From the NCBI GenBank assembly GCA_964588075.1, contig CAZPNU010000027.1, positions 1-29,238 of the forward strand: DNA of 29,238 bases. Reading direction: 5' to 3'. The position numbers and the translations under genes are program-made. Below, piece by piece: positions 2,924 through 18,360 of this stretch. Within the stretch, counting starts at the first letter, position 1. The number at the start of each line of letters is the position of its first letter. The notes beneath the pieces are model-generated. The model was not told the origin of the DNA. It was given only the letters and a program-made list of their open reading frames with translations, and ran no database searches. Origin of the DNA: an uncultured Candidatus Cloacimonas sp. (GTDB lineage: Bacteria > Cloacimonadota > Cloacimonadia > Cloacimonadales > Cloacimonadaceae).

Positions 2924-3052
2924 GGGGTGGTGACGTCCTCGTCGCCACAATAACCTCTGCCGCTTCCTACTGGAGTGGTGACGTCCCCGTCGCCACAATA
3001 ACCTCTGCCGCTTCCTACTGGGGTGGTGACGTCCCCGTCGCCACATAAACCT
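2924..3052. repeat. 48-bp tandem repeat, about 2.7 copies, each unit carrying a 9-bp-stem hairpin
   Basis: Units lie at 2924-2971, 2972-3019 (46/48 identical) and a partial unit at 3020-3052. Each contains GTGGTGACG-TCCC-CGTCGCCAC, with one G-T wobble in the stem. A degenerate partial unit precedes the array at 2911-2923. Confidence 0.9.
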
Positions 3053-3148: not shown

Positions 3149-3913
3149 ATGAAAAAAAGCGCTATTATTTTGGCGGCGATGCTGCTACTATTTACCTTGG
3201 GAAGCTGTAAGCACGAGGAAGGCGATGCCCCCAACTATGTTTTCCCTTTGCAGATAGGCAATAGCTGGGAGATGATTCAAACATTTTCCGCACCTGAAAC
3301 AGTAGATATGGAGGACGGAGTATATAGAGACACTATGATGATATGGGTGGATTCTGCAGCATACTCTCCCGATAGCGAGGTGTTTATGAAGGTTAAATAT
3401 ACATACGCCAGTATGCCTGATGGTATCGGGTGCGAATACCTGGTAAACAGGTCGGATGGGCTATATCTGCTTGGGTGGGAGAGCATTATAGGTAGTACTC
3501 CCTTCAAAATCGGCAACCGAGAGCTACATTCCGGGCTTTTTAACCGCTTTATAGAGCATGATGATTCCAAGGCAATTGTATGGCTGGAAACCCCTCAACT
3601 CTTGATTCCAAAGGATTGTTCCGAAGGTAAAACCTGGGACAATCCGGGATCTCATGATAATCTACCGAGCACATGTTCCATCTTAGCCCCATGCAATGTG
3701 GAAACCGATTGCGGGACTTTCGCCTGCATCACCCGCAAGACAGTGGTGTTTCTTGACGATTTTAGCTGGAGTTATTACAACTATTATTGCGCCAAAGGCT
3801 TTGCAAAGTTCCGCTTCGATTTCACAACCGAGATGTTTGACGAAGACGGAAACTACCTTGGCACCTTTGATGGTTACGAGCAGTTGCTGCTGAATGATTG
3901 CGAGCTGAACTGA
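3149..3913 (+). CDS. Hypothetical lipoprotein
   Basis: Signal peptide with lipobox (LLLFTLGSC), a strong RBS, and no recognisable catalytic motif. Confidence 0.7.
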   Translation: MKKSAIILAAMLLLFTLGSCKHEEGDAPNYVFPLQIGNSWEMIQTFSAPETVDMEDGVYRDTMMIWVDSAAYSPDSEVFMKVKYTYASMPDGIGCEYLVNRSDGLYLLGWESIIGSTPFKIGNRELHSGLFNRFIEHDDSKAIVWLETPQLLIPKDCSEGKTWDNPGSHDNLPSTCSILAPCNVETDCGTFACITRKTVVFLDDFSWSYYNYYCAKGFAKFRFDFTTEMFDEDGNYLGTFDGYEQLLLNDCELN

Positions 3914-4146: not shown

Positions 4147-7050
4147 TTGAACAAGATTGCTCCTATAACGGATTATCATGCAAAATACTATGCACTAGAG
4201 CTTAGCAGAAAGAGTGGTGCAGGTGTAGAAAGGGTTGGAAGAGCTTTGTTTGATGCCTGTGTTGACCTAAACCCCCATCAGATTGAAGCATCATTATTTA
4301 GCTTACGCTCTCCCATATCCAAAGGGGTTCTATTGGCTGATGAAGTTGGACTGGGGAAAACCATTGAAGCTGGCTTGACTATCTGTCAGTATTGGGCAGA
4401 GAAAAAGCGCAGAATCCTGATCATTTGCCCAGCATCCCTGAGAAAACAATGGGCTTTGGAACTTCAAGAAAAATTTAATCTCCCTGTGCAGGTGTTAGAT
4501 GCCAAAACTGCCAAAGACCTGGTGAAGAAAGGTCACGACAATCCTTTCGATACAAAGCATATAGTAATAGTTTCTATGCATTATGCTGGGCAGAACGCAG
4601 GATCAATCAAGCTGCTCCCCTGGGATTTAGTGGTAATTGATGAAGCCCACAAGCTGCGTAATGCTTACAGGCAAAGCAATAAACTGGGGCAAGAGATCAG
4701 GCGGGCAACCGAAGGAATCAAGAAGATACTGCTTACTGCCACTCCTCTGCAAAACTCTCTTACAGAGCTATACGGCCTCTCCACTCTGATTGATGAAAAC
4801 CTGTTTGGTGATTTACCTTCTTTCCGCAGCCAATACATGAATTCCGGTGGTAGCCTAAGCGATTTGAAAGAACGCTTACAGACCTTTTGTTGGAGAACCC
4901 TTCGCAGCCAAGTATTGGAATATGTAAAGTTTACAGAACGCAGACCCATCACCCGTCCTTTCACTCCTACCCAGCAAGAACATGATTTGTATATGGGTGT
5001 TTCTGAGTTCCTGAAAACAGAGGATAACTATGCCCTCCCACAAGGTCAGAAGCATCTGCTTATCCTACTGGTTCGCAAAGTACTGGCTTCATCACCTCAT
5101 GCTGTGGCAGGTACTCTGGAGATTATCAGAGACCGCTTAGTTAAACTGAGACAAAACTACCACAAGCAGCAAAGTGCCTTACAACAATTGATTATTGACG
5201 ACTACATCGATGATGACTTGTTAGATGAGCTTTTAGAAGATCAGGAAGACCTCGAAACTGAGACTGAGCCAGCTCCTTCACCTGAAGCAGATCAGCCTAA
5301 GAAACTCGACTTAACCAAATTAGACGCTGAAATAAAAGCCTTGAATGGCTACATAGACAATGCCAGAAGCTTCGGAGTGGATTCCAAGTCCAAAGCATTA
5401 CTTACTGCTTTAGATATAGGCTTTTCCCAAATGAAAAAAATGGGAGCAGCCCGCAAAGCAGTTGTATTCACAGAATCCAGACGCACCCAAGCCTGGCTCA
5501 AGGATTATCTGGAAATGAATGGCTATGCCGGAGAAGTGCTGACCTTCAATGGTTCCAATAAGGACGATGCTACAGGACAAATCTATGCTGAGTGGTTAGC
5601 AGAAAATCAAGCCAATGGCAGATCATCAGGTTCCAAACAGGTTGATTTACGCACAGCAATCATTGAACGCTTCAGAGATCAATCCAGCATCCTGATTGCC
5701 ACAGAAGCTGGTGCTGAAGGCTTAAACCTCCAATTCTGCTCCATGGTGATCAATTATGACCTACCTTGGAATCCACAGCGCATAGAGCAGAGGATTGGTC
5801 GCTGTCACCGTTACGGACAGAAGCACGATGTAGTGGTGATCAATTTCCTCAATGAACGTAATGAAGCAGACCAAAGAGTATATACAATCCTCTCAGAGAA
5901 GTTTCACTTATTCTCCGGTGTTTTTGGTGCTTCTGATGATGTTCTCGGCTCACTGGAATCAGGAGTTGATTTCGAACGGAAGGTGCTGGAGATTTATCAG
6001 CAATGCCGTACCGCGGAGGAAATTGCCACAGCTTTTAATAAACTTCAGAAAGAGCTGGAAGAGACGATCCAAACCCGCATGAAAGATACTCGCCGTAAGC
6101 TCTTGGAGCATTTTGATGAGGATGTTCATGAACGCCTCAAAGCAAACCATACCGATGCTGTAGAAGCCCTGGACAAGATAGGAAAGCTCTTCTGGCATTT
6201 AACGATGCACATCTTGAACAAGGAAGCATCCTTTGAAGAGAAAACCCATACATTCAGGCTAAAGAAAGCTCCCTGCAAAGGCAGCCGTCCGGGTACCTAT
6301 CGTCTGATCTCCAAAGACAGCGATAACTTCGGGAAAGAATTCCTATATCGGATGAGTCATCCCTTGGGTGAATACGTGCTGGAGCAAGGCAAAAAGAAAA
6401 CATGCCCTCCCGTAGAAGTGGTTTTTGACATCACCAAACACCCCACTCGAATTACTCTAATCGAACAATTGAAAGGGAATTGCGGATGGTTAAGGCTTGA
6501 TCTTCTTACCGTAAACTCTCTGGATACAGAGGAGTATCTGCTGTTTACGGCACTGGATGACGCAGGCAATAGCCTTGACCAGGAGACCTGCGAAAAGCTG
6601 TTCTTATGTAATGGCTTCGTCTCAGATCAATCTCTTGATATAATGCCTGAAGAATTAAACCTGAAAGATAATGCGGAAAGGCACGTAGAGGCTATTTTAG
6701 CCAAGAACCTGGAAGAGAATAACAAGCACTTCACCGAAGCCCGTGAACAACTGGAGAAATGGGCAGATGACATGGTAAAATCTGTCGAACGGGAATTGGA
6801 TGATATCAAAAGGCAGATTCGGGAAAAGCAGAGACTTTGCCGTCAAAGTCCTACTTTGAAGGAACAGCACGATTTACAGGAAGATATAGCCAAGCTGGAA
6901 AAGAAGAAACGCAAATTGCGTGAGAAGATATTTGATACAGAAGACCAGATTGCCGAAAAAAGGGATAAGCTGATCGATGCCCTTTCACACAGGCTTAAAC
7001 AAAAGACGAAAACTACAACCCTCTTCACCATCCGGTGGAAAGTAGTGTGA
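4147..7050 (+). CDS. SNF2-family (SF2) helicase/translocase with a long C-terminal accessory region ending in a coiled coil
   Basis: Motif I DEVGLGKT (aa 65-72, nt 4339-4362). Motif II DEAH (aa 165-168, nt 4639-4650). Motif III LLLTATPLQNSL. Helicase-C motifs ATEAGAEGLNLQ and PWNPQRIEQRIGRCHRYGQK. TTG start with GGGGA upstream. Confidence 0.9.
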   Translation: MNKIAPITDYHAKYYALELSRKSGAGVERVGRALFDACVDLNPHQIEASLFSLRSPISKGVLLADEVGLGKTIEAGLTICQYWAEKKRRILIICPASLRKQWALELQEKFNLPVQVLDAKTAKDLVKKGHDNPFDTKHIVIVSMHYAGQNAGSIKLLPWDLVVIDEAHKLRNAYRQSNKLGQEIRRATEGIKKILLTATPLQNSLTELYGLSTLIDENLFGDLPSFRSQYMNSGGSLSDLKERLQTFCWRTLRSQVLEYVKFTERRPITRPFTPTQQEHDLYMGVSEFLKTEDNYALPQGQKHLLILLVRKVLASSPHAVAGTLEIIRDRLVKLRQNYHKQQSALQQLIIDDYIDDDLLDELLEDQEDLETETEPAPSPEADQPKKLDLTKLDAEIKALNGYIDNARSFGVDSKSKALLTALDIGFSQMKKMGAARKAVVFTESRRTQAWLKDYLEMNGYAGEVLTFNGSNKDDATGQIYAEWLAENQANGRSSGSKQVDLRTAIIERFRDQSSILIATEAGAEGLNLQFCSMVINYDLPWNPQRIEQRIGRCHRYGQKHDVVVINFLNERNEADQRVYTILSEKFHLFSGVFGASDDVLGSLESGVDFERKVLEIYQQCRTAEEIATAFNKLQKELEETIQTRMKDTRRKLLEHFDEDVHERLKANHTDAVEALDKIGKLFWHLTMHILNKEASFEEKTHTFRLKKAPCKGSRPGTYRLISKDSDNFGKEFLYRMSHPLGEYVLEQGKKKTCPPVEVVFDITKHPTRITLIEQLKGNCGWLRLDLLTVNSLDTEEYLLFTALDDAGNSLDQETCEKLFLCNGFVSDQSLDIMPEELNLKDNAERHVEAILAKNLEENNKHFTEAREQLEKWADDMVKSVERELDDIKRQIREKQRLCRQSPTLKEQHDLQEDIAKLEKKKRKLREKIFDTEDQIAEKRDKLIDALSHRLKQKTKTTTLFTIRWKVV

Positions 7051-7057
7051 TGATATC

Positions 7058-7077
7058 AACCACAAAAGACACGAAAG
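7058..7077. repeat. Left inverted-repeat arm (CACGAAA-type array) of the GxxExxY cassette
   Basis: AACCACAAAAGACACGAAAG matches the reverse complement of 7471-7500 at 19/20 aligned positions, with one 10-nt unit missing. Confidence 0.8.
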
Positions 7078-7092
7078 GGGGATTGATCAGTA

Positions 7093-7470
7093 ATGGGTGA
7101 GATTGTTTATCAGCAAGAATCTTACTTGATTACTGGAGCGATATTTGAAGTGTACAAGGAGTTAGGCTCTGGGTTTCTGGAGGCTGTTTATCAGGAATGC
7201 CTAAGTAGGGAGTTTGCCCGGAAGAATATCCCCTTTACAGCACAGCCGGAACTCACAATTTGGTATAAGGACGAACCGATAGAACAAAAATACAAACCCG
7301 ATTTCGTCTGTTTCGATAAGATTATTATTGAGCTAAAAGCTGTTACCGAACTGAGTCCAATCCATACAGCCCAAGTATTAAATTATCTTAGGATTACAAA
7401 GATTAGGTTAGGCTTATTGGTAAATTTCTGTGCTTATCCAAAAGTCAAGATAGAGAGAATTACATTATGA
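7093..7470 (+). CDS. GxxExxY-family small PD-(D/E)XK nuclease-fold protein
   Basis: 125 aa. It has the GFLEAVY (GxxExxY) motif and the PDFVCFDKIIIELKA (PD...ExK) motif, a typical size and layout for this family. Confidence 0.8.
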   Translation: MGEIVYQQESYLITGAIFEVYKELGSGFLEAVYQECLSREFARKNIPFTAQPELTIWYKDEPIEQKYKPDFVCFDKIIIELKAVTELSPIHTAQVLNYLRITKIRLGLLVNFCAYPKVKIERITL

Positions 7471-7500
7471 CTTTCGTGTCATTTCGTGCTTTTCGTGGTT
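7471..7500. repeat. Right inverted-repeat arm: three phased TTTCGTG units
   Basis: The sequence is CTTTCGTGTCATTTCGTGCTTTTCGTGGTT. TTTCGTG starts at 7472, 7482 and 7491 (10- and 9-nt spacing). It lies directly after the GxxExxY stop and 19 nt before the mod ATG (RBS AAGGAG 7507-7512). Confidence 0.85.
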
Positions 7501-7518
7501 ATAAATAAGGAGTATTGA

Positions 7519-10500
7519 ATGCCCACAACAGAACAACTTCGCCAAAAGCTGATAAATAAACTCAAAGAACTGTTCCAACTCAATCAACCAGATCTGGATT
7601 TCGGTTTCTATCGGATTATGCATGCCAAAGCTGAACAGGTTAGCAGTTTCATTGAAAATGACCTCCTCCAAGTAATCCAGGAAACCTTTGGACAAGCGGA
7701 TGAAACCAAGAAAGACAAGCTAAAACAAGAACTGGACAATGCAATCCAGACCGCCATAGATTTCGGAGCACCAGACCCTGATGTTACTCCCAAAGTGATG
7801 GAAGCACGTGCCAAGTATGAAGCTATCAAAGATAGTGCCGGTTCCGAAGCAGAGATTTATGACCACCTCTACCGTTTCTTTGAGCGGTATTACGATGATG
7901 GAGACTTTATCTCCAGACGTTACTATACCAGAGAAACACCGGGAAAAGCAGCACCATTCTCCATACCTTACAACGGAGAAGAAGTCAAGCTGCATTGGGC
8001 AAATGCAGACCAGTACTACATAAAAACCACCGAGTATTTTGCCAATTACACTGTCAATCTGACCGAAGCTGTTAAGAATTTGAAAGAGAACAAGAAACGC
8101 AATGATGAAGAGATCGATCTTGAAGACAGCAGTGTTCCAGAGGGCTTAAAGCTGCACTTCCGCATTGTTGACGCCACCGAGGGCGAACATGCCAATGTGA
8201 AAGCCAGTGATGCTACCAAACGCTATTTTGCTATTCACAAAGAAAGACCAATTGAGCTGAACGACAAAAATGAGCTTGTTATCAACTTTGAATACAAGCC
8301 TACCACTGATAAAGCCAGACAAGATACCCTAAACCAGGAAGCAGTAGCACTGGTTATCAATGCCCTAAAAGACTTTGAACCACGAAATACCCGAAAAGAC
8401 ACGAAAATGGAATCTGAAGAAGAACCACAAAATACACAGAAATTCGCAGAAGCATTATTTGAGGAAGAGCTACAATATCCCATGACAAACAATTGTACTT
8501 CCTTACAAAATGAGCTTTCGTGTGCTTTCGTGCCTTTCGTGGCTAAGGATTACTTGAATGCTCTTTCCACCAGCATTCCCACTGATAAAGATAAAGACCG
8601 AATCCTATTGACCAAGTACATAAACCAATATACAGCACGTAATACGATGGACTATTTCATTCATAAAAACCTTGGTGCATTCCTCAAACGAGAGCTGGAT
8701 TTCTATATTAAAAACGAGATTATGCGCCTGGATGATATCGAAAACGCCGAAGCTCCCAAGGTGGAAGACTACCTCGCCAAGATCAAAGTCCTGAGAAAAA
8801 TCGCCATCAAACTCATAGAGTTTATGGCACAGCTTGAGGACTTCCAAAAGAAGCTCTGGCTCAAAAAGAAATTCGTGGTGGAGACAAACTACTGCATCAC
8901 TCTCGACAGGGTACCGGAAGAGCTTTATCCCCAAATCATAGCCAATAAAGAGCAGATAGATGAATGGATAAAGCTTTATGCCATTGATGAGATCGAAGGC
9001 GATACTACATGCCCAGCTTACACCAACCCTCTTACCCTGAACTTTCTCAAGGTTAACGACAAGCTGATGCTGGATACTCGCTTCTTTAGCGAGGTTTTCA
9101 AAGCCAAGCTGCTTAGTTCAATTCAAAACTTTGATGAAGAGTGCGATGGACTGCTCATACATAGCGAGAATTTCCAAGCCTTGGATTTGCTTCAAGAGAG
9201 GTATAGAGAGCAGGTTAAATGTGTTTATATTGACCCGCCTTATAACTCTAAAACAACGGAAATAGCTTACAAAAACACTTATAAACATTCATCATGGCTA
9301 AGTCTAATGCAAAACAGGTTTGAATTGAGTAACTCATTATCAACACAAGATGGGTCTCATATAGTTGCAATAGACGAAAACGAACAAGAAAACCTCGGGC
9401 GTTTGTTAAATGATGTTTTTCCAGATTATGAAATCATATGTATTGCAGTGATACATAACAAGAAGGGGATACAGGGTGATTATTTCTCTTATAACCACGA
9501 GTATGCTTTTTTTATAATTCCTAATCAACTCAAAGAGACTAATGGTATTTCGATATCCGAGAATGATTGGAAATACGATAATCTCAGGAAATGGGGCAGG
9601 GAATCAGAAAGAAATACTGCAAAAAACTGCTTCTACCCAATATTGGTTAAAGATAATAAGATAATTGGATTTGGTGATGTGTGTGATGTGGATTTTCATC
9701 CTGGGAAATCAATGGTACAAGTAGACGACATCATTTATATCTATCCAGTTGATTCACAAGGAATAGAAAGAAAATGGAGATATGCTCGAAACACTGTTGA
9801 ATCCATTGTACCACTTTTAAAAGTTTACAATACTCGAGATGCCGAGATTCAGATTGTTAAAGCCAAAGCAGAAAAAACATTGAAGACCGTTTGGGATGAC
9901 ACGAAGTACATAGCAGGAGATTATGGAACTAAGTGGTTAACTGATCTTGGCGTCAAGTTTAGTGAGACTTTATACCCCAAATCAATACATACAGTAATAG
10001 ACTCGATAACTGCGATTTCTGATGATACATCATATATTCTTGATTACTTTGGTGGATCTGGAACAACCGGTCATGCAGTTATAGATATTAACAGAGAGGA
10101 TAATGGAAAGCGTAAATATGTTCTCATAGAAATGGGAGATTATTATAACACAATACTTAAACCTCGTATCAGCAAGGTAGTTTATAGCAAAGATTGGAAA
10201 GATGGCAAGCCCAAGAATCGAGATACCGGTGTTAGCCACTGTTTCAAATATCTGCGTTTAGAAAGTTATGAGGACACTCTGAACAATCTGGTTCTGCAAA
10301 ACGAGCCCATCAGAGATAAAACCATTGCCGGTAATGATTCCCTCAAAGAGGATTATTTGTTACACTATATGCTGGATGTGGAAAGCAAAGGCAGCCAGAG
10401 TTTACTAAATATAGATGCTTTCAATGATCCCACCTCCTATTTGCTAAAAGTAAAAAAGCCCGGTAGCGATGAGTACACAGACAAAGCAGTGGACTTGATC

Positions 10501-10950
10501 GAGACCTTCAATTATCTGATCGGTCTTAGATTGGTGCATCTGGGGATTCCACAAACACTGACAGCTGCTTTTACCCGGATGAAAGACCCGGATTTACCTC
10601 AGGATCAGGATACCAAGCTGGTCATCAATGGAGATTTTAAACAGGTCGCAGATGGCAAATGGTGGATTCGCAAGGTAGAAGGCTGGGTCCCCAAGAATCC
10701 CTATAGTCCCAATGATGGCTTAAGAGAAAAAGTGCTCATCGTATGGCGCAAGCTGACCGGAAACCTAGAAGAGGATAACCTTATTCTGGACTCATGGTTC
10801 CAGAAGAACCGCATAAGCACTCTGGACTGGGAATTTGATACCATCTATGTAAATGGCAGTAACAACCTGCCTAACCTGCAAAAGGATGGTGATACCTGGA
10901 AGGTGCGGCTCATTGAGGAAGAATTTATGAAACGGATGTGGGAGCAATGA
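7519..10950 (+). CDS. Large beta-class N6-adenine (N6/N4 family, Type III Mod-like) DNA methyltransferase with long N- and C-terminal extensions
   Basis: Motif IV DPPYN is at aa 572-576 (nt 9232-9246) and precedes motif I FGGSGTTG at aa 844-851 (nt 10048-10071). This is the beta permutation, with about 270 aa (a putative TRD) between the motifs. The roughly 570-aa N-terminal and 290-aa C-terminal regions have no motif I recognise. Confidence 0.85.
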   Translation: MPTTEQLRQKLINKLKELFQLNQPDLDFGFYRIMHAKAEQVSSFIENDLLQVIQETFGQADETKKDKLKQELDNAIQTAIDFGAPDPDVTPKVMEARAKYEAIKDSAGSEAEIYDHLYRFFERYYDDGDFISRRYYTRETPGKAAPFSIPYNGEEVKLHWANADQYYIKTTEYFANYTVNLTEAVKNLKENKKRNDEEIDLEDSSVPEGLKLHFRIVDATEGEHANVKASDATKRYFAIHKERPIELNDKNELVINFEYKPTTDKARQDTLNQEAVALVINALKDFEPRNTRKDTKMESEEEPQNTQKFAEALFEEELQYPMTNNCTSLQNELSCAFVPFVAKDYLNALSTSIPTDKDKDRILLTKYINQYTARNTMDYFIHKNLGAFLKRELDFYIKNEIMRLDDIENAEAPKVEDYLAKIKVLRKIAIKLIEFMAQLEDFQKKLWLKKKFVVETNYCITLDRVPEELYPQIIANKEQIDEWIKLYAIDEIEGDTTCPAYTNPLTLNFLKVNDKLMLDTRFFSEVFKAKLLSSIQNFDEECDGLLIHSENFQALDLLQERYREQVKCVYIDPPYNSKTTEIAYKNTYKHSSWLSLMQNRFELSNSLSTQDGSHIVAIDENEQENLGRLLNDVFPDYEIICIAVIHNKKGIQGDYFSYNHEYAFFIIPNQLKETNGISISENDWKYDNLRKWGRESERNTAKNCFYPILVKDNKIIGFGDVCDVDFHPGKSMVQVDDIIYIYPVDSQGIERKWRYARNTVESIVPLLKVYNTRDAEIQIVKAKAEKTLKTVWDDTKYIAGDYGTKWLTDLGVKFSETLYPKSIHTVIDSITAISDDTSYILDYFGGSGTTGHAVIDINREDNGKRKYVLIEMGDYYNTILKPRISKVVYSKDWKDGKPKNRDTGVSHCFKYLRLESYEDTLNNLVLQNEPIRDKTIAGNDSLKEDYLLHYMLDVESKGSQSLLNIDAFNDPTSYLLKVKKPGSDEYTDKAVDLIETFNYLIGLRLVHLGIPQTLTAAFTRMKDPDLPQDQDTKLVINGDFKQVADGKWWIRKVEGWVPKNPYSPNDGLREKVLIVWRKLTGNLEEDNLILDSWFQKNRISTLDWEFDTIYVNGSNNLPNLQKDGDTWKVRLIEEEFMKRMWEQ
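8378..8544. repeat. Gene-less copy of the CACGAAA/TTTCGTG inverted arrays embedded in frame in the methyltransferase CDS
   Basis: The left-type arm at 8378-8407 is AACCACGAAATACCCGAAAAGACACGAAAA. A second, degenerate left-type copy lies at 8423-8442. The right-type arm at 8515-8544 is CTTTCGTGTGCTTTCGTGCCTTTCGTGGCT, 26/30 identical to 7471-7500. The two arms are 23/30 complementary. Confidence 0.85.
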
Positions 10951-11040: not shown

Positions 11041-12171
11041 ATGAATAACGAGATTAGACACAAGCTAAAGAACATAGAGATAACCGGATTCAAGTCAATT
11101 GGCACAAAGCAGAGTATCTACTTTGGCGATATCAATGTCTTGATAGGTGCAAATGGAGTCGGCAAAAGCAATCTGGTTTCCTTTTTTCAGATGCTGAATC
11201 ACATCACTACTAGCGGACTGCAAATGTTTATTGGAAAGCAAGGATACGCGGATTCGCTCTTATATTATGGCTCTAGAAAAACTGAGCGTTTTACAGCAAA
11301 GTTAAGATTCGAAAATAACGAGTGGTATAACGAATATGATTTTGCACTTACACACTCATTCCAAGGGCAAATGATGTTTGCTTATGAAAATGCAAAATCC
11401 TTGAAGCTTTCATCATTTGCTAACCGTCAGAGATCGCCTAAGACATTAGGTACGGGACACCAGGAGAGTTTGTTAAAGGATAACAGCTCATTGCCTGTTG
11501 CAAAAATTCTGCTATCTGTTCTTGGCCGATGTAGAGCCTATCAGTTTCACGACACATCTGATAAGGCATTTATCAGACAACCAAGTGCTATTGACGATAA
11601 TCGCTTTCTGAAATCTGATGCAGGTAATCTCGGAGCTTACCTCTATACTATGAGAGCTAGCAAAACCGGAATACGTTACTATGAGCGCATAGTTAACAGG
11701 ATACAAAAGATTATGCCCCAGTTTGAAGCTTTTTTCCTAGAACCTGCTGTGGAGAATCCTTACTTGATAAAACTTCAATGGAGTGCGAAAGGGCACAATC
11801 ATATATTTGGGGCTCATCAAATATCTGATGGTTCATTGAGGTTTATGGCTTTGGCAACCTTACTATTACAACCTCCGGATTCACTTCCCAATGTGATCGT
11901 GATTGACGAACCTGAGCTTGGTCTGCACCCGGAAGCTTTAATTGACTTGGTGGGTATGATTAAGGTCGCAGCACAAAACTGTCAGATAATTCTATCTACC
12001 CAATCCTCTTTCCTATTGGATTTCTTCAATGTTAATGACATCATTGTAGTTGAGACCAAGGATGACTCAACTGTGTTCAACAGACTAGATCAAGATAAAC
12101 TTACAGAATGGGTCAAGGATTATACCATGTCCGAGTTATGGGAGAAAAACCTTATCGGGGGTCGCCCATGA
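11041..12171 (+). CDS. ABC/SMC-type ATPase (AAA_21/AAA_15-like) of the kind paired with Toprim/OLD-like partners
   Basis: Walker A GANGVGKS (nt 11146-11169). Signature-like ISDGSLRFMALATLL. Walker B/D-loop VIVIDEPELGLHP (from nt 11893). RBS GGAGAG before the ATG. Confidence 0.85.
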   Translation: MNNEIRHKLKNIEITGFKSIGTKQSIYFGDINVLIGANGVGKSNLVSFFQMLNHITTSGLQMFIGKQGYADSLLYYGSRKTERFTAKLRFENNEWYNEYDFALTHSFQGQMMFAYENAKSLKLSSFANRQRSPKTLGTGHQESLLKDNSSLPVAKILLSVLGRCRAYQFHDTSDKAFIRQPSAIDDNRFLKSDAGNLGAYLYTMRASKTGIRYYERIVNRIQKIMPQFEAFFLEPAVENPYLIKLQWSAKGHNHIFGAHQISDGSLRFMALATLLLQPPDSLPNVIVIDEPELGLHPEALIDLVGMIKVAAQNCQIILSTQSSFLLDFFNVNDIIVVETKDDSTVFNRLDQDKLTEWVKDYTMSELWEKNLIGGRP

Positions 12172-12842
12172 TCAGGCTACATGTGTTAGGGGAGGGACCA
12201 ACAGAGAAGAGATTTGTAGAGAGCTTGCTGGTTAATCACCTTATTCATCATCATGTTATTGTTGATGTATGTTGCTTTTTAACCAAGTATGTTCCCAAAA
12301 CTGGACAGCAGTTTAAGGGTGGAATAAGTAACTACGCTAAAGTTAGAAATGATATAGTAAAACGAATACGAACAGACAACCATGATGAATGCAGATTCAC
12401 CACGATGATTGATATGTATGGACTTCCAGATGATTTTCCGGGTTATCAAGAAGCCTTTAGGGTTAATGATCCCATCATTAAGGTAGAGATACTTGAATCT
12501 GCTTTTGCTCATGATATAGATGATCGCCGTTTTATACCCTATATTCAGTTGCATGAGTTTGAAGCTCTGATATTTTCTGATCCTAGCATGTTAATAAATG
12601 AGTACTTAGATAACGTACAGCAAATAGAAGGGCTTGTACAATTAAGCCAACAAATGGAACCTGAGATGATAAACGAAAATCCAAACACATCCCCATCGCA
12701 TAGGATTCTTAATGCAATCCCTGCTTATGATAAGCCATACGCTGGTAGCAAAATTACGGAAACGATCGGTTTAAACACTATAAGGCAGAGATGCCCTCAC
12801 TTCAATGAATGGCTAAGCAAACTTGAAGGCTTAAACAGCTAA
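12168..12842 (+). CDS. DUF4276-like (Toprim-like) protein, partner of the ATPase
   Basis: I place the start at ATG 12168, which overlaps the ATPase stop as ATGA; the ORF track starts at 12108 inside the ATPase. The N-terminus MIRLHVLGEGPTEKRFVESLL and the later HEFEALIFSDP resemble the DUF4276 family as I recall it. There is no HMM confirmation. Confidence 0.65.
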   Translation: MIRLHVLGEGPTEKRFVESLLVNHLIHHHVIVDVCCFLTKYVPKTGQQFKGGISNYAKVRNDIVKRIRTDNHDECRFTTMIDMYGLPDDFPGYQEAFRVNDPIIKVEILESAFAHDIDDRRFIPYIQLHEFEALIFSDPSMLINEYLDNVQQIEGLVQLSQQMEPEMINENPNTSPSHRILNAIPAYDKPYAGSKITETIGLNTIRQRCPHFNEWLSKLEGLNS

Positions 12843-15800
12843 TGGCTCGCAAAACAAGCTTACAAAACCATAAGTTCTCTAATAAACTGCTTCTTAACCA
12901 GTGGTTGATGAGTCAGTTTGGAATAGACCCGCTCTTGGAGTATAAGGATAATACCAAACCGTTTCACAAGCTGGCAGCACCAATCAGGGATAGTCGGCTG
13001 GAAGGCTATGATGCGGACGGATTGCATCGCTTTTATCATGAACTGGTGAATAGCGAGCTTTTTTACAATGAGTTCCATCCCATCAGCAAAGAGCAGCTAC
13101 GCATCTATGAGGAAAACATAGTATCACATACCAGAACGATAAACTACTTACGCAGTCGTCCAATTGTCTGGAAGTACTTTCAATGGCTAACCCTACTCTT
13201 TGTGGAAATCTATCTGGATCGCTATTTTACCGATAAAGCAAAGCTGCTGGATGATCTGAATATCTATCTAAAGAGATTTAATGAGAAGTGGACTGGCTTT
13301 CAGAACCTTGAGCCATACTCTTTTGACGATCTGAATAAACTTTGCCTGCAAAATGCTACGGGAAGTGGCAAGACCCTTTTGATGCATGTGAACCTCTTGC
13401 AGTTCAGGCATTATGCGAAAAAGACTCGTGAGGGAAGTGAGATATCCAGGGTAATCTTGCTAAGCCCCAATGAAAGGCTTAGTGAGCAGCATTTGGAAGA
13501 GCTTAAGATCAGCGGTTTCTATTCTGCCCAAAGACTAAAGGCCAAACAAGACGGCAGTATTGATATGGTCGATGTGATCGAAATCACTAAACTCGGTGAT
13601 ACAGAAGGACCAAATACAATTGCCACCCGAAGCCTTGGGGATCAAAACCTGCTATTGGTTGATGAAGGTCACCGGGGGATGAGCGGAAAAGATGAAGGTG
13701 TGTGGTTCACCAGACGGTCGGAGCTATGTGCCAAAGGCTTTACCTTTGAGTATTCTGCCACCTTCGCCCAGGCTGTTGCTGCTGCGAATAACCGAGCTTT
13801 TGAGGATAGCTATGCAAAAACAGTGATCTTCGACTATTCCTACAGGTGGTTTTACGAAGATGGCTTTGGCAAAGACTATCAGATATTGAACTTGCCCAAA
13901 ACCTATCAGCAGGTGCAGGATGTATATCTGACTGCCTGTCTGCTCAAATACTATCAGCAACTTAAAGTTTATGAAGATAAAAAACTGGATATTGTCCCCT
14001 TTAACCTAGAAAAACCCCTGTGGGTATTCGTGGGGAGTACTGTTACCAAGAAGAAAGGCAAGCAAGAGGTTGAGCTTCCAAGCGAAGAGTTATTGGCTGA
14101 TGTCGGTCAGATTATTGTCTTTATCGCAAAATTCCTTTCTAATGCACCTGTCTTCCAACGTAGTATAGAGCAAATTCTTTACGGAAGAGGAAGCAGTACA
14201 GGTTTACTGGATTATAATGGTAATGATATCTTCGCCAATTCCTTCAATTATCTACTCAAGACGGTTAATACTACGAATGGAACTTCAGAGATTTATCAAG
14301 ATATCTTGAGAACCTTGTTCAATAATCCTGCCAGTGGTCAGCTAAGATTGGATAGAATCAAAGGAGATTCAGGCGAGGTAGCTTTGTATCTTGGTAATAG
14401 CGACACACCCTTTGGATTGATCAATGTCGGGGATGCCAAAGGACTCTGCGACCACGTAGAGGAATATGCCAAGCACAATGATGTTCAGCTAACTGTGGAC
14501 GACAGCGACTTCACAGAAGCGATGTTTGCTTCAGTGAAGGATTCGTCATCTCCCATCAATCTATTGATCGGTTCCAAGAAGTTTGTAGAAGGGTGGGATT
14601 GCTGGCGTGTTAGCACCATGGGTTTGATGCATGTCGGTAAGAGCGAAGGAACGCAAATTATCCAGCTATTTGGGCGCGGTGTGCGCTTAAAAGGGTATGA
14701 GTGGAGTCTGAAGCGCAGTGGGCATACTTATGCCACAACAAAACCTGGATTCATTGAAGATATCGAAACCCTGAATGTCTTTGGCATCGAAGCTGACTTC
14801 ATGGATAAGTTCAGACAATTCTTACGTGATGAAGGCTTGCCTGGCAACGAGAAAAGGATGGTTGTTACTATCCCAATGAATGTAACCGCTGATTTTGGCA
14901 AGAAGCTGAAGATAATACGACCGAAAAAGAAGAAAGATGGCACTGAGTATGATTTTAAGAAGGACGGACCAGTACCTACCCTTGGCAGTATACCACAGTA
15001 CCTGCAAAACAATCCGGTAGTTTCAGACTGGTATCCCAGGATACAGACTATTAAGTCTCGTGGTGCTCAGCAGGATGGTCAAAAAGACCAAGTAAAATTG
15101 AAAAGTAGGCAAATCAGTCTATTGGATATGGATCGCCTGTATTTCGAACTGGAACGATTCAAACGAGAAAGAAGCTGGCACAATCTCAATCTCAGCAAAC
15201 AGGGGATTGTTAGCTTGTTATCAGACACATCTTGGTATCGGCTTTTTTTACCGGAAACCAGGCTCAATCCTCTAAACTATGATGAAGTGCTCATCCTCCA
15301 GCAAATCGCTACGGAACTGGTTAAGCGTTTCTGTGAAAAGTACTATAACTTCTGTAAAAAGGCATACATCGAGCCTCGGTTGGAATTGAGAGAGCTGACA
15401 GCAGATGACGACAATCTGCCTTCAGATAAAGAATATCAGTTGATTGTGGATGGCGATGATATCCAAGTAATCGAAGGAATCAAGAAGCTCAAAGATGAGA
15501 TCATCGTTAAGAAAGATCAGCTTTTGCAAGTGGGCGATCTCAAAGCCTGTAACTTTGGCAATCATCTCTTCCAGCCCTTGTTTCATGTGCGTCATGGTGG
15601 CAATATCACAATCCTGCCAGTCTCCTTAGGAGATAGCGAATACCAGTTTATTACTAACCTTAAAGAATGGTGCGAAAAGTATCAGAAAGATATGAAGGAT
15701 AAGGGACAGGAGCTATATCTTCTCCGCAATCTTAGCAGGGGCAAGGGAGTTGGCTTCTTTGAAGCAGGCAACTTCCATCCCGATTTCATTCTCTGGATAC

Positions 15801-16069
15801 TCTCAGAAGGAAAGCAATATGTTCACTTCATTGAACCTCACGGTCTGATGCATGAAGGTGTAAACAGCGAGAAAATCCAGTTCCACAAGCGCATCAAGGA
15901 GATTGAGACCAGGCTTGGCGATCCCAATGTGATCCTTAGTAGCTGGATATTGTCCTGGACTCCCAAACAAGAGCTAAAGCTCCGTGGGTATGATCCAGAC
16001 GAGTATCTGAAGAATAATGTGGTGTTTATGGAAGATGATGAGTACATCAACAATCTAATAAGGACATAG
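12842..16069 (+). CDS. Res-like SF2 helicase (Type III restriction Res family) with a C-terminal PD-ExK-like nuclease motif
   Basis: Motif I ATGSGKT (aa 172-178, nt 13355-13375). Motif II DEGH (aa 274-277, nt 13661-13672). Motif III YSATF. Then EGWD and motif [11 protein letters not shown] (from nt 14663). The C-terminus reads FHPDFILWI...VHFIEPHG (D981, E998, H1000). The start overlaps the previous stop as TAATG. Confidence 0.8.
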   Translation: [1075 protein letters not shown]

Positions 16070-17093: not shown

Positions 17094-18224
17094 TTAATAA
17101 CCTTCCTGTAGATATTGGAAGTAGTTGCCGGGGTTTATCAGCTTCAGCTCCGCTTGGGGGTAGGCATTTTGGAAAGCCCTTGCCCGGGCAACTTTCTTGG
17201 GATTCCATTTTAGCTCATACGCGGTGATAACCGAGTTTAGCACTTCCAGATAGTCCACATCTCCGGAGCTTTTGGAGCGCCAGAAGAATGGCTGTGCCAA
17301 GAGTTTAAGGTAATCCCGCTTTTTGAACAATTCGGATACGATGTAGTTTTCCCACAACTTCCCGATATCGTCCCGCAGTTCCACAGGACGATAGTCCGAG
17401 ATTAAGGCGTTTCGAATGCCATTATCCCAAAAGTATATTTTGCGGGATCGCTTTATCTCGTTCCTAAGATTCGAGCTGAAGTTCGGAAGACGGAAAAGCA
17501 CGAAGGCTCGTTCCAATATTCCGATGTAACGCTCCACGGTGGAACGGTCAGAATCCACTAATTGAGCAAGCTCGTGATATGAAACTTCGGACGAAACCTG
17601 AAAGGCTAAGGCACGGAGGAGCTTCTCCACCAGTTCCGGTCTGCGGAGATCGTGCAAAGCAAATACATCTTTGTATAGATAGCTGGAGCTTAGGTTTGCC
17701 AGTATCTCTTGTTCATTACCCGGATTGGTCACCACCTCCGGATAGGCACCATAAACAAGGCGGAGCTTTAGATGCTTAATCTCTTCCATCGGCTCTGTGT
17801 TCCCGGCAAGCTCTTGAAATGCCAAGGGATATAAGTTATATTCCCACTTTCTGCCGGTTAGAGGTTCATTAAGTTTGTCCGATAGCTCAAAAGAAGATGA
17901 ACCGCTTGCGATAACCTGAACATCGGGGATGTTATCCACGATAATCTTGAGGTTTAGCCCTGCATTATCAATGCGCTGTGCTTCGTCTATAAGTATTAGC
18001 TTCTTTGTCCCTATTACACTTCGCAGCACAGATGAATTTTGGGAGGAAAAGAGGTCTCTAACCTCCCGTTCATCACAATTGTAGTAAGCACCATGTTCCG
18101 GATAAGAAGCCAGAATCTGCCTTAAGAGAGTTGTTTTCCCGCTTTGCCGAGGTCCAAAGATAAGCACAAGCTTCCCGCTGAAGAGTTTGCTTTTTATCTT
18201 ATCCTCGATGATGCGTTTTATCAT
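17094..18224 (-). CDS. AAA-family ATPase with a DUF4143-type C-terminal region
   Basis: Walker A GPRQSGKTTLL and Walker B LILIDEAQ. The length and C-terminal layout are typical of the AAA_14 + DUF4143 family. Confidence 0.8.
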   Translation of the reverse strand: MIKRIIEDKIKSKLFSGKLVLIFGPRQSGKTTLLRQILASYPEHGAYYNCDEREVRDLFSSQNSSVLRSVIGTKKLILIDEAQRIDNAGLNLKIIVDNIPDVQVIASGSSSFELSDKLNEPLTGRKWEYNLYPLAFQELAGNTEPMEEIKHLKLRLVYGAYPEVVTNPGNEQEILANLSSSYLYKDVFALHDLRRPELVEKLLRALAFQVSSEVSYHELAQLVDSDRSTVERYIGILERAFVLFRLPNFSSNLRNEIKRSRKIYFWDNGIRNALISDYRPVELRDDIGKLWENYIVSELFKKRDYLKLLAQPFFWRSKSSGDVDYLEVLNSVITAYELKWNPKKVARARAFQNAYPQAELKLINPGNYFQYLQEGY

Positions 18225-18283: not shown

Positions 18284-18360
18284 ATTTTGCGGTTATACCC
18301 ACAAATAAACCTATAATTTTGCGGTTATACCCACAAAAAAACCTGTCATTTTGCGGTTAG
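18284..18360. repeat. 32-bp tandem repeat, about 2.4 copies, upstream of the AAA ATPase gene
   Basis: Units lie at 18284-18315, 18316-18347 (29/32 identical) and a partial unit at 18348-18360. The core is ATTTTGCGGTTATACCCACAAA. The array is 60-136 nt upstream of the minus-strand start at 18224. Confidence 0.9.

Follow-up and report, generated by a model that had tools for sequence, protein, structure and literature searches.

Gene-less heptamer-array palindromes within a Cloacimonas methyltransferase gene as probable satellites of a GxxExxY nuclease cassette

We analysed a 29,238-nt stretch of DNA from an uncultured Candidatus Cloacimonas sp. (contig CAZPNU010000027.1; hereafter the window), in which a 165-nt palindromic segment (8378-8542, + strand) lies in frame inside mod, the gene for a Type III-like N6-adenine DNA methyltransferase (Mod; 7519-10950, + strand, 1143 aa). 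About 0.9 kb upstream of this segment is a small cassette, consisting of a gene for a 125-aa GxxExxY protein (7093-7470, + strand; PF13366 PDDEXK_3, TIGR04256) set between inverted arrays of the heptamer TTTCGTG, or CACGAAA in the other orientation. The segment in mod is probably made up of gene-less heptamer-array palindromes lodged in a permissive linker of Mod, that is, of satellites of the neighbouring cassette. In the mechanism that we favour, GxxExxY would bind the phased heptamers through its helix 1 (residues 7 and 14), would nick or cleave at or near the arrays, and would thereby mobilise its own cassette and, in trans, gene-less copies; this spread appears to favour DNA close by and the loops of elements already present. 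The insert in mod would owe its survival to a unit length divisible by three and to arrays that contain no stop codon in either of the reading frames encountered, and the encoded peptide would be a disordered passenger, not a functional domain. We infer mobilisation by the nuclease from association, covariation, local matching of types, and polymorphism for presence, absence and replacement.

The in-frame insertion in mod

The word TTTCGTG occurs nine times in the window, compared with 3.05 scattered copies expected from shuffles, and all nine copies fall within four arrays (7070-7076(-), 7472-7497(+), 8381-8406(-) and 8516-8541(+)). The extended pattern TTTCGTGN3TTTCGTGN2TTTCGTGG, allowing at most one mismatch, was found three times in the window versus 0.00 times in 100 shuffles. 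Two of the arrays flank the GxxExxY gene. The left one (7058-7077, + strand), of CACGAAA type, begins with AACCAC 8 nt past the stop codon of the SNF2 gene and holds two units, the last of which, plus GG, overlaps into the GxxExxY ribosome-binding site. The right one (7471-7501, + strand) holds three TTTCGTG units and a GTGGTT end; it begins immediately behind the stop codon of the GxxExxY gene and leaves 6 nt before the mod ribosome-binding site.

The remaining two arrays form the outer arms of the composite insertion, which runs from AACCAC to GTGG and spans 55 codons (Mod aa 287-341). The outer left arm (8378-8407, + strand) reads AACCACGAAA-TA-CCCGAAA-AGA-CACGAAA-A and encodes PRNTRKDTK, and the outer right arm (8515-8544, + strand) reads CTTTCGTG-TGC-TTTCGTG-CC-TTTCGTGG-CT and encodes LSCAFVPFV. 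The two are 81% complementary over 27 nt (8380-8406 and 8516-8542) and lie 109 nt apart. A repeat finder paired them with the cassette arrays, at 87% identity over 31 nt for the right arms (7471-7501 and 8515-8545) and at an 80% match for the left arms (8389-8413 and 7059-7083); it also matched 8423-8437 to 7058-7072 at 93%. The Mod open reading frame (ORF) stays open throughout the insert, giving the peptide EPRNTRKDTK...LSCAFVPFVAKDY. A preliminary description of this DNA, made from the sequence alone, had reported these arrays, a 16/20 match of 8423-8442 to 7058-7077, and the open frame with its peptide; the repeat finder and hand counts bore out all of its array coordinates and counts, the 16/20 match was reproduced by hand count, and the frame and peptide were confirmed from the ORF.

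To place the segment among homologues, we aligned Mod with 20 of them and searched the 120 best for element-peptide patterns; the homologues with source names are mostly from Candidatus Cloacimonadota. Relative to its closest homologues, 8378-8542 is a lineage-specific in-frame insertion. P0002, the closest relative (1090 aa, 87% identity), has no counterpart of Mod residues ~287-341, and neither do P0003, P0011, P0022 and P0028. A short version of the segment (EPRNSRKDTKND-LQDDLSCDFVPFVV) is seen in some relatives; P0010 and P0012 share the long version of the window, and P0008, P0013 and P0031 have a different long version. Element-peptide patterns matched in 23 of the 120 homologues, and 22 of these 23 matches fell at site 1 (aa 288), or at site 1 plus a site 2 near aa 890-920, about 600 residues further on. 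In the remaining homologue (P0115; 56% identity), this linker contains, near site 1, a short element of independent origin that is read in another frame (REPREIHEKENFRDFRAFRG). The alignment, a check that had been proposed at the outset, therefore identifies the ~55-aa segment as a lineage-specific insertion whose peptide is not conserved in distant homologues. The insert sits upstream of the methylase core, inside a variable linker; solved relatives (EcoP15I Mod and similar) cover the core only, at residues ~530-930. In an AlphaFold model of Mod, which is poor overall (mean predicted local distance difference test score (pLDDT) of 55), the stretch of lowest pLDDT (24-32) is residues 289-339, modelled as coil that joins two helices, which weakly supports the placement of the insert in a permissive, disordered surface linker.

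The anatomy of the element was worked out from the DNA of ten related Mod loci. Measured from AACCAC to GTGG, one basic unit takes up exactly 75 nt (25 codons), with three CACRRAA heptamers per arm, 2-3-nt spacers, 9-10-nt phasing and a loop of ~19 nt. Gene-less copies of this length are found in L209 (2360-2434 and 4181-4255), L124 (8744-8818), L206 (2405-2479) and L207 (2360-2434), and all gene-less copies in these Mod genes are 75 nt long whatever their heptamer type, with the exception of an independent 60-nt copy in L208. Elements in other genomes, unlike these, vary in length from ~52 to 140 nt. Copies at site 1 and site 2 are 70/78 and 67/78 identical, loop included, and because this identity extends through the loop, the whole 75-nt unit was copied rather than re-derived. 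The 165-nt version of the window consists of an outer palindrome of the 75-nt class with a 90-nt insertion in its loop, and this insertion begins with a second left arm (8423-8442, + strand; AACCACAAAATACACAGAAA) of CACAGAA/CACGGAA type. The nested element is intact in L206 (the 75-nt copy given above; CACAGAA/CACGGAA ... TTCCGTG) and stands alone at site 1 in L207; in the window, its interior and right arm (~8443-8500) have decayed. As the nested element lies in the loop of the outer one, the composite arose in no fewer than two steps, an outer insertion and a later one into its loop. What had been noted at 8423-8442 as a degenerate further left-type copy is therefore real, but it belongs to this separate CACAGAA-type element.

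The GxxExxY cassette and its arrays

The protein of the window scores 145.3 bits against PF13366 (cut-off 22) and 145.3 bits against TIGR04256 (cut-off 35), and it keeps the PD-(D/E)XK motif of the PDDEXK_3/GxxExxY family. The catalytic residues P69, D70, E80 and K82 (PD...ExK) are invariant or nearly so in GxxExxY proteins. Its AlphaFold model (pLDDT 95.6) is a minimal PD-(D/E)XK fold, for which the nearest structures in the PDB by Foldseek are Cas4 and lambda exonuclease, a generic match (template modelling score (TM) ~0.5). Searching the PDB with the single sequence gave no match, and searching with a GxxExxY profile gave weak matches to T7 endonuclease I (E = 0.08-0.8). A specific assignment as a junction resolvase was considered and dropped, as the Foldseek matches are to generic PD-(D/E)XK proteins only. 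A 2012 survey of the superfamily lists the function of GxxExxY/PDDEXK_3 as 'Unknown' (PMC3424549), and in our literature search GxxExxY, PDDEXK_3, PF13366 and TIGR04256 were named in passing only.

We then considered whether the arrays are a regular companion of the gene, using 80 GxxExxY genes from metagenomes and displaced windows as controls. A phased heptamer array lay within 100 nt of the gene for 76/80 GxxExxY genes versus 13/211 displaced controls, and strict inverted arrays on both sides were present for 32-38 of the 80 genes versus 0/211-221 controls. These arrays start within ~10 nt of the GxxExxY start and stop codons. Public gene calls lengthen GxxExxY to 135-152 aa via the left array, overlapping the SNF2 stop codon (L206-L210 and L212); such array-derived N-terminal extensions are likely a widespread annotation artefact.

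Approaching from the arrays instead, an exact-pattern scan for the triple TTTCGTG array in contigs representing one genome per species returned at least 120 loci, compared with a chance expectation of ~2-3 by our own estimate. The preliminary description had proposed a genome-wide count of the arm sequence, and this sequence does recur in many other genomes. GxxExxY was within 100 nt of the array at 4 of the 120 loci listed (in L110 the gene is 145 nt away), so most array copies are gene-less. Across the family, an arm holds 2-4 heptamers at 9-10-nt phasing, with AACCAC and GTGGTT as the outer ends. The loci listed span Verrucomicrobiota, Planctomycetota, Acidobacteriota, Gemmatimonadota and Proteobacteria, with further hosts among Methylococcales, Gallionellaceae, Rhodocyclus, Cloacimonadota, Spirochaetia, Lentisphaerota and others. 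Among the matches listed, 148/156 arrays end in TTTCGTG-G, followed mostly by TT or AC, 82/156 have an inverted partner within 450 nt, and 42 clean gene-less CACGAAA...TTTCGTG pairs measure 52-435 nt; most of the arrays listed lie just downstream of stop codons, and read-through of an ORF is rare. Sister words (CTTCGTG, ATTCGTG, TTCCGTG, TTCTGTG, TTTCGCG and CTTGGCG) also occur, often nested in onion-like layers. An Rfam scan of 6900-8700 (E <= 1) returned no family, and a literature search found no bacterial use of TTTCGTG/CACGAAA, a description in a subscription journal being possible; the family of heptamer-array elements, which spans many phyla, is apparently undescribed.

The cargo of tight array pairs is almost always GxxExxY; one of the exceptions is a DUF4926-like ORF in L031. 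There, the place of GxxExxY within a TTTCGTG-type pair (5093-5433) is taken by an ORF of 79 aa on the minus strand, with a weak DUF4926 match (E = 3.8e-5, below the Pfam cut-off), and an outer CTTCGTG-type pair surrounds all of it.

Copies inside the ORFs of other genes were sought as well. The 9/157 arrays of the genome sample that lie in long stop-free frames are probably spurious, being mostly in high-GC DNA, and the top candidate (L034) is actually intergenic on the other strand. The in-frame matches inspected in viral contigs (L232 4294-4318, L262 12454-12478, L248 5064-5115 and L289 1699-1723) are perfect 9-nt CACGAAANN tandems that encode EKHEKHEK, DTKDTKDTK or PRNPRNPRK in low-GC, giant-virus-like ORFs; they have no inverted partner and were set aside as unrelated, since they are probably normal coding repeats whose period happens to fit the search pattern.

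An indication that GxxExxY reads the arrays comes from covariation between protein and heptamer. Of 74 classifiable cassettes, 55 have A and 19 have G at base 5 of the heptamer. Among the protein columns, residue 14, which immediately precedes the Gly in GAxFEVY, is the most informative, with 0.70 of a possible 0.82 bits of mutual information (null 95% maximum 0.30), followed by residue 7 (0.57 bits), which is two helical turns away on the same face of helix 1. At residue 14, the G-type loci have Arg in 18 cases and Gln, Met, Thr, Ser, Ile or Val in 1, whereas the A-type loci have Arg in 1 case and one of those other residues in 54, so that 72/74 loci are concordant (Fisher 5e-15, kinship ignored). 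Arg14 with Glu7 pairs with CACGGAA or CACAGAA, and Gln, Met or Thr14 with Lys or Arg7 pairs with CACGAAA; the protein of the window, with Thr14 and A-type (CACGAAA) arrays, fits this pattern. Because residue 14 is encoded ~40 nt inside the gene, its correlation is not an artefact of overlap with the array. Arg14 proteins fall into at least four neighbour-joining clades with Gln-type sisters, and six or seven of these proteins have a non-Arg protein as their closest relative, a result that persists when positions 7 and 14 are masked. Heptamer positions 2 and 4, for which few loci are variant, gave no significant covariation. Pairing of Arg with G and of Gln with A is classic in protein-base recognition. 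We read the covariation as evidence that helix 1 of GxxExxY recognises the heptamer, and the switch at residues 14 and 7 looks like a one-residue recognition code.

Turnover at Mod loci, constraint and competing explanations

The Mod loci, although a small and partly non-independent sample, allowed us to follow cassette and in-ORF element together. In-ORF elements were found only in loci with a cassette (6/6: the window, L124, L206, L207, L208 and L209). L122 also has an in-ORF element, and its contig begins inside the right array of a cassette. Element-free loci include three that are cassette-free (L121, the P0003 locus and L211) and two that bear a cassette (L210 and L212). The heptamer type of the in-ORF element equals that of the cassette in the window and L124 (TTTCGTG), in L208, an independent lineage (TTTCGCG), and in L207 and the nested element of L206 (TTCCGTG/CACAGAA). 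The junction between SNF2 and Mod, compared across loci whose flanking proteins are 86-95% identical to those of the window, is empty in L121 and L211, holds an A-type cassette 81% identical to that of the window in L124, and holds a G-type cassette only 60-63% identical in L206, L207 and L209.

Five orthologues share the outer element and were used to examine constraint. A single one of 42 heptamer columns is variable (2%), compared with 5/18 spacer and edge columns (28%), 393/1458 flanking coding columns (27%) and 151/286 third codon positions in the upstream flank (53%). The difference is significant against the background (binomial P = 3e-5) and against the spacers (Fisher P = 0.008), and the three heptamers of the outer right arm are invariant in all five. 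Between the window and L124, the 107-nt loop region has ~9 differences by hand count, mostly non-synonymous. The peptide thus drifts and the 7-nt words are kept, which is more than passive tolerance. Upkeep of the heptamers in mod may occur through protein binding, homogenisation with the cassette arrays, or RNA or DNA structure.

Several observations weigh against the satellite explanation. No event of transposition or excision was directly observed. A consistent target-site duplication was not found at the Mod sites, where the empty sites are diverged; repeats were limited to a possible AAAGACT(T/A) at site 1 in L124 and GAT alone at site 2, and for the same reason the exact ends of the element cannot be fixed. 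The fold match of GxxExxY is generic, with T7 endonuclease I at E = 0.08, and its covariation with the heptamer is not corrected for phylogeny, the tree of a 125-aa protein being weak. L209 combines a G-type cassette with A-type in-ORF elements. About half of the arrays among the matches listed have no recognisable partner, and a simple palindrome model fails for tandem same-orientation arrays that recur every 70-95 nt without left-arm partners and alternate three TTTCGTG units with ATTCGTG-type arrays (L013 5300-5650; L095 1-450, reverse strand; L115 7290-7460). Finally, the heptamers in mod are conserved far above the level of a neutral passenger, which speaks against plain tolerated junk.

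The main rival, which we consider unlikely, is an element acting at the level of RNA, in which hairpins or duplexes between leader and ORF arms would steer RNase III-type processing, mRNA stability or Mod expression, and GxxExxY could be an RNA-binding or RNA-cleaving PD-(D/E)XK protein. The element of the window folds at -43.7 kcal/mol (z -4.1 versus shuffles) and the 75-nt form at -35.6 kcal/mol (z -5.9). The preliminary description had suggested a switch based on alternative pairings of the mod leader, and the duplex between leader (7471-7500) and ORF left arm (8378-8407) is indeed the strongest predicted, at -33.8 kcal/mol compared with -28.0 and -21.8 kcal/mol for the local pairs; that between cassette left arm and ORF right arm is predicted at -21.2 kcal/mol. 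The minimum free energy structure of 7050-8560 likewise pairs cassette right with ORF left and cassette left with ORF right arms, not local hairpins. However, the arms leave the mod ribosome-binding site free, stopping 6 nt before it, and no mechanism of occlusion is evident. The stem-forming heptamers are conserved and the bulge-forming spacers variable, as expected of RNA, but the spacers often do not covary between arms and conservation tracks the heptamer word, not pairing. Cassette and ORF element agree in arm type at five of six loci, L209 being the mismatch, and many Mod orthologues lack the ORF element, the cassette or both (L121, L211, L210 and L212). Most arrays lie just past stop codons, which would suit a role in transcripts, but the array family is overwhelmingly unrelated to mod and matches no Rfam family. 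The protein-base covariation suggests base-specific recognition by a protein, which suits duplex DNA, though RNA could also be its target.

A domesticated operator is less likely still. Here GxxExxY would be a DNA-binding regulator or roadblock, and the copy in mod would be kept to tune mod transcription, linking cassette and restriction-modification operon. Such a role would account for nucleotide-level conservation of heptamers in mod amid drifting spacers, for the usual agreement between the type of the element and that of the resident protein, and for the 9-10-bp phasing, which puts the sites on one face of the helix. Against this, close Mod orthologues lack the element and some lack the cassette, the strictly conserved PD...ExK residues argue for a nuclease rather than a mere binder, and the element is also present at hundreds of intergenic places that have nothing to do with mod.

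It is improbable that the 55-aa peptide is itself a selected linker or interaction module with incidental nucleotide repeats. The open-frame insert does persist in P0010, P0012 and P0017 (70-77% overall identity), but it is missing from the closest homologue, unrelated peptides occupy the same site (CACAGAA type in P0007 and P0037, another frame in P0115), the region is predicted to be disordered, and changes in the loop are mostly non-synonymous while third positions within heptamers are conserved.

Least likely is a recombination substrate that toggles Mod, a reading also offered in the preliminary description; the inversion or deletion would take place between 7471-7500 and 8378-8407, or between 8378-8407 and 8515-8544. 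Inverted repeats of 27-29 nt with 81-86% complementarity are present, but they are short and imperfect for RecA-dependent exchange. Neither a recombinase of the tyrosine or serine type nor an invertase is encoded in the window, all ten related loci for which DNA was available are colinear with intact ORFs, and the number of units per arm is fixed at three, with no slippage, in all orthologues with a TTTCGTG-type element.

The satellite explanation agrees with its first proposal as a gene-less, MITE-like in-frame derivative of the cassette (MITE, miniature inverted-repeat transposable element), now well supported by the absence of the segment from the closest Mod homologues, the 75-nt copies elsewhere, the widespread family of arms and the tight tie to GxxExxY.

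Genomic setting, relation to known repeats and implications

The operon that hosts mod and its insert has the order SNF2(DrmD-like)-Mod-[HEC-01 A/B]-Res, with the SNF2/DrmD-like helicase gene at 4147-7050 and the Type III Res helicase-nuclease gene at 12842-16069. PADLOC places GxxExxY in no known defence-system model. The slot between Mod and Res varies among the loci: in the window it holds the embedded HEC-01 A/B pair (AAA_21 + DUF4276; 11041-12842), in L207, L210 and L212 a 340-aa protein with a Fic protein, and in L209 and the P0003 locus it is empty. Two tandem repeats were also seen elsewhere in the window. A 48-nt repeat (2927-3052; 2.6 copies, 94% matches) is intergenic and upstream of an ORF (3149-3913) that has no Pfam match, and a 32-nt repeat (18284-18359; 2.4 copies, 93% matches) adjoins the start of a minus-strand AAA_14/DUF4143 ATPase gene (17094-18224; PADLOC PDC-S01).

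By analogy, the element resembles the Rickettsia palindromic elements (RPEs) in outcome, and in organisation it resembles the pairing of REPINs with RAYTs (doublets of repetitive extragenic palindromic (REP) sequences and their associated tyrosine transposases) or of MITEs with insertion sequences (IS). RPEs are palindromic repeats tolerated in frame as extra peptide segments in many unrelated genes (PMC10969869). Like them, the element is a short palindrome found in frame in a coding gene, here as a 165-nt insert that leaves the ORF 7519-10950 open and is missing in P0002. Unlike it, RPEs are ~100-150 bp long, restricted to Rickettsia and have no known associated enzyme, whereas the element has arms built of phased arrays of a 7-nt word, occurs in many phyla and is linked to a nuclease gene; its in-ORF copies are also exceptional in the genome sample.

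The likeness to REPIN-RAYT systems lies in a gene flanked by inverted short repeats, in gene-less hairpin doublets that are mostly intergenic, and in an enzyme proposed to work in trans on these repeats (PMC3116915, PMC3337134). Gene-less hairpin doublets far outnumber the gene copy here as well (4 of the 120 loci listed have the gene within 100 nt of the array; predicted hairpin of the 75-nt form, z -5.9). However, a RAYT is a Y1 HUH transposase, whereas the cassette encodes a 125-aa PD-(D/E)XK nuclease with no Y1_Tnp match (TIGR04256/PF13366); a REP is a single GTAG-tagged palindrome, whereas the arms of the element are multi-unit phased arrays; and RAYTs are typically single, vertically inherited copies, whereas GxxExxY cassettes undergo replacement and horizontal mixing. 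Bacterial MITEs (Correia, ERIC, BOX, Nezha and others) occasionally form in-frame fusions with host ORFs (PMC10969869). The element shares with them small size, terminal inverted repeats and non-autonomous copies, having a 75-nt unit with AACCAC...GTGGTT ends, 30-nt arms and no coding capacity; it differs in having no matching IS-type transposase, PF13366 being the only regular gene between matching arrays, and the search for a target-site duplication at the diverged sites gave no more than the candidate repeats described above. As it has no Y1 or IS transposase, and as no target-site duplication is demonstrable, it falls outside the REPIN/RAYT and MITE classes as they are defined.

Other systems offer partial parallels. 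Arms made of repeated heptamers recall the subterminal repeats to which transposases bind in Tn7 or Ac/En-Spm elements. As a small, apparently selfish PD-(D/E)XK gene between (pseudo)palindromic half-sites, the cassette is reminiscent of the PD-(D/E)XK homing endonuclease I-Ssp6803I and of free-standing homing endonuclease genes, and so is its presence, absence or replacement at one orthologous junction. The cassette differs in having no intron or intein context and in that its half-site arrays also travel gene-less, and GxxExxY has no demonstrated sequence or close fold relation to these nucleases. Phasevarions also place repeats inside Type III mod ORFs; these repeats are homogeneous 4-5-nt tandem tracts in which copy number shifts the reading frame, unlike the element, which has three 9-10-nt units per arm in fixed number (mixed 9/10-nt period in five TTTCGTG-type orthologues) and preserves the frame. 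Neither an invertible promoter nor a shufflon fits a window with no recombinase and related loci that are all colinear. The cyanobacterial short tandemly repeated repetitive (STRR) sequences are dispersed head-to-tail arrays of 7-nt words, without the 2-3-nt spacers and inverted pairing of our arrays. The intervening sequences (IVSs) of 23S rRNA are palindrome-flanked inserts in hairpin loops, tolerated by the host and sometimes carrying small ORFs, which belong to another family, with a four-helix-bundle fold, and are unlike the cassette gene. The likeness to STRR (dispersed 7-nt word arrays) and to IVSs (a tolerated, palindrome-flanked insert) is descriptive.

A broader proposal is plausible but tentative: GxxExxY proteins may be the sequence-reading nucleases of a new multi-phylum group of selfish elements, with a recognition code in helix 1 and 75-nt satellites that colonise intergenic DNA, the loops of other elements and ORFs. 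Colonisation of ORFs such as mod would be possible because the length of the element is a multiple of three. If this is true, a testable function would be available for the very common GxxExxY/PDDEXK_3 family, namely recognition and probable cutting of its own arrays; GxxExxY is annotated in thousands of genomes, often within defence and housekeeping operons. The contrast of Arg with Gln or Met at residue 14 would predict a change of specificity by one residue and one base. The arrays would form a new class of dispersed repeats, ranging from Proteobacteria to Planctomycetota, and they can mislead gene calling through 'HEKHEK'-type N-terminal extensions and extra peptide segments. After the RPEs of Rickettsia, mod would provide another clear case of a palindrome colonising a coding gene in frame, here the methyltransferase of a restriction-modification system, and the conservation of the heptamers within it raises the question of whether such passengers acquire functions for the host or for the element.

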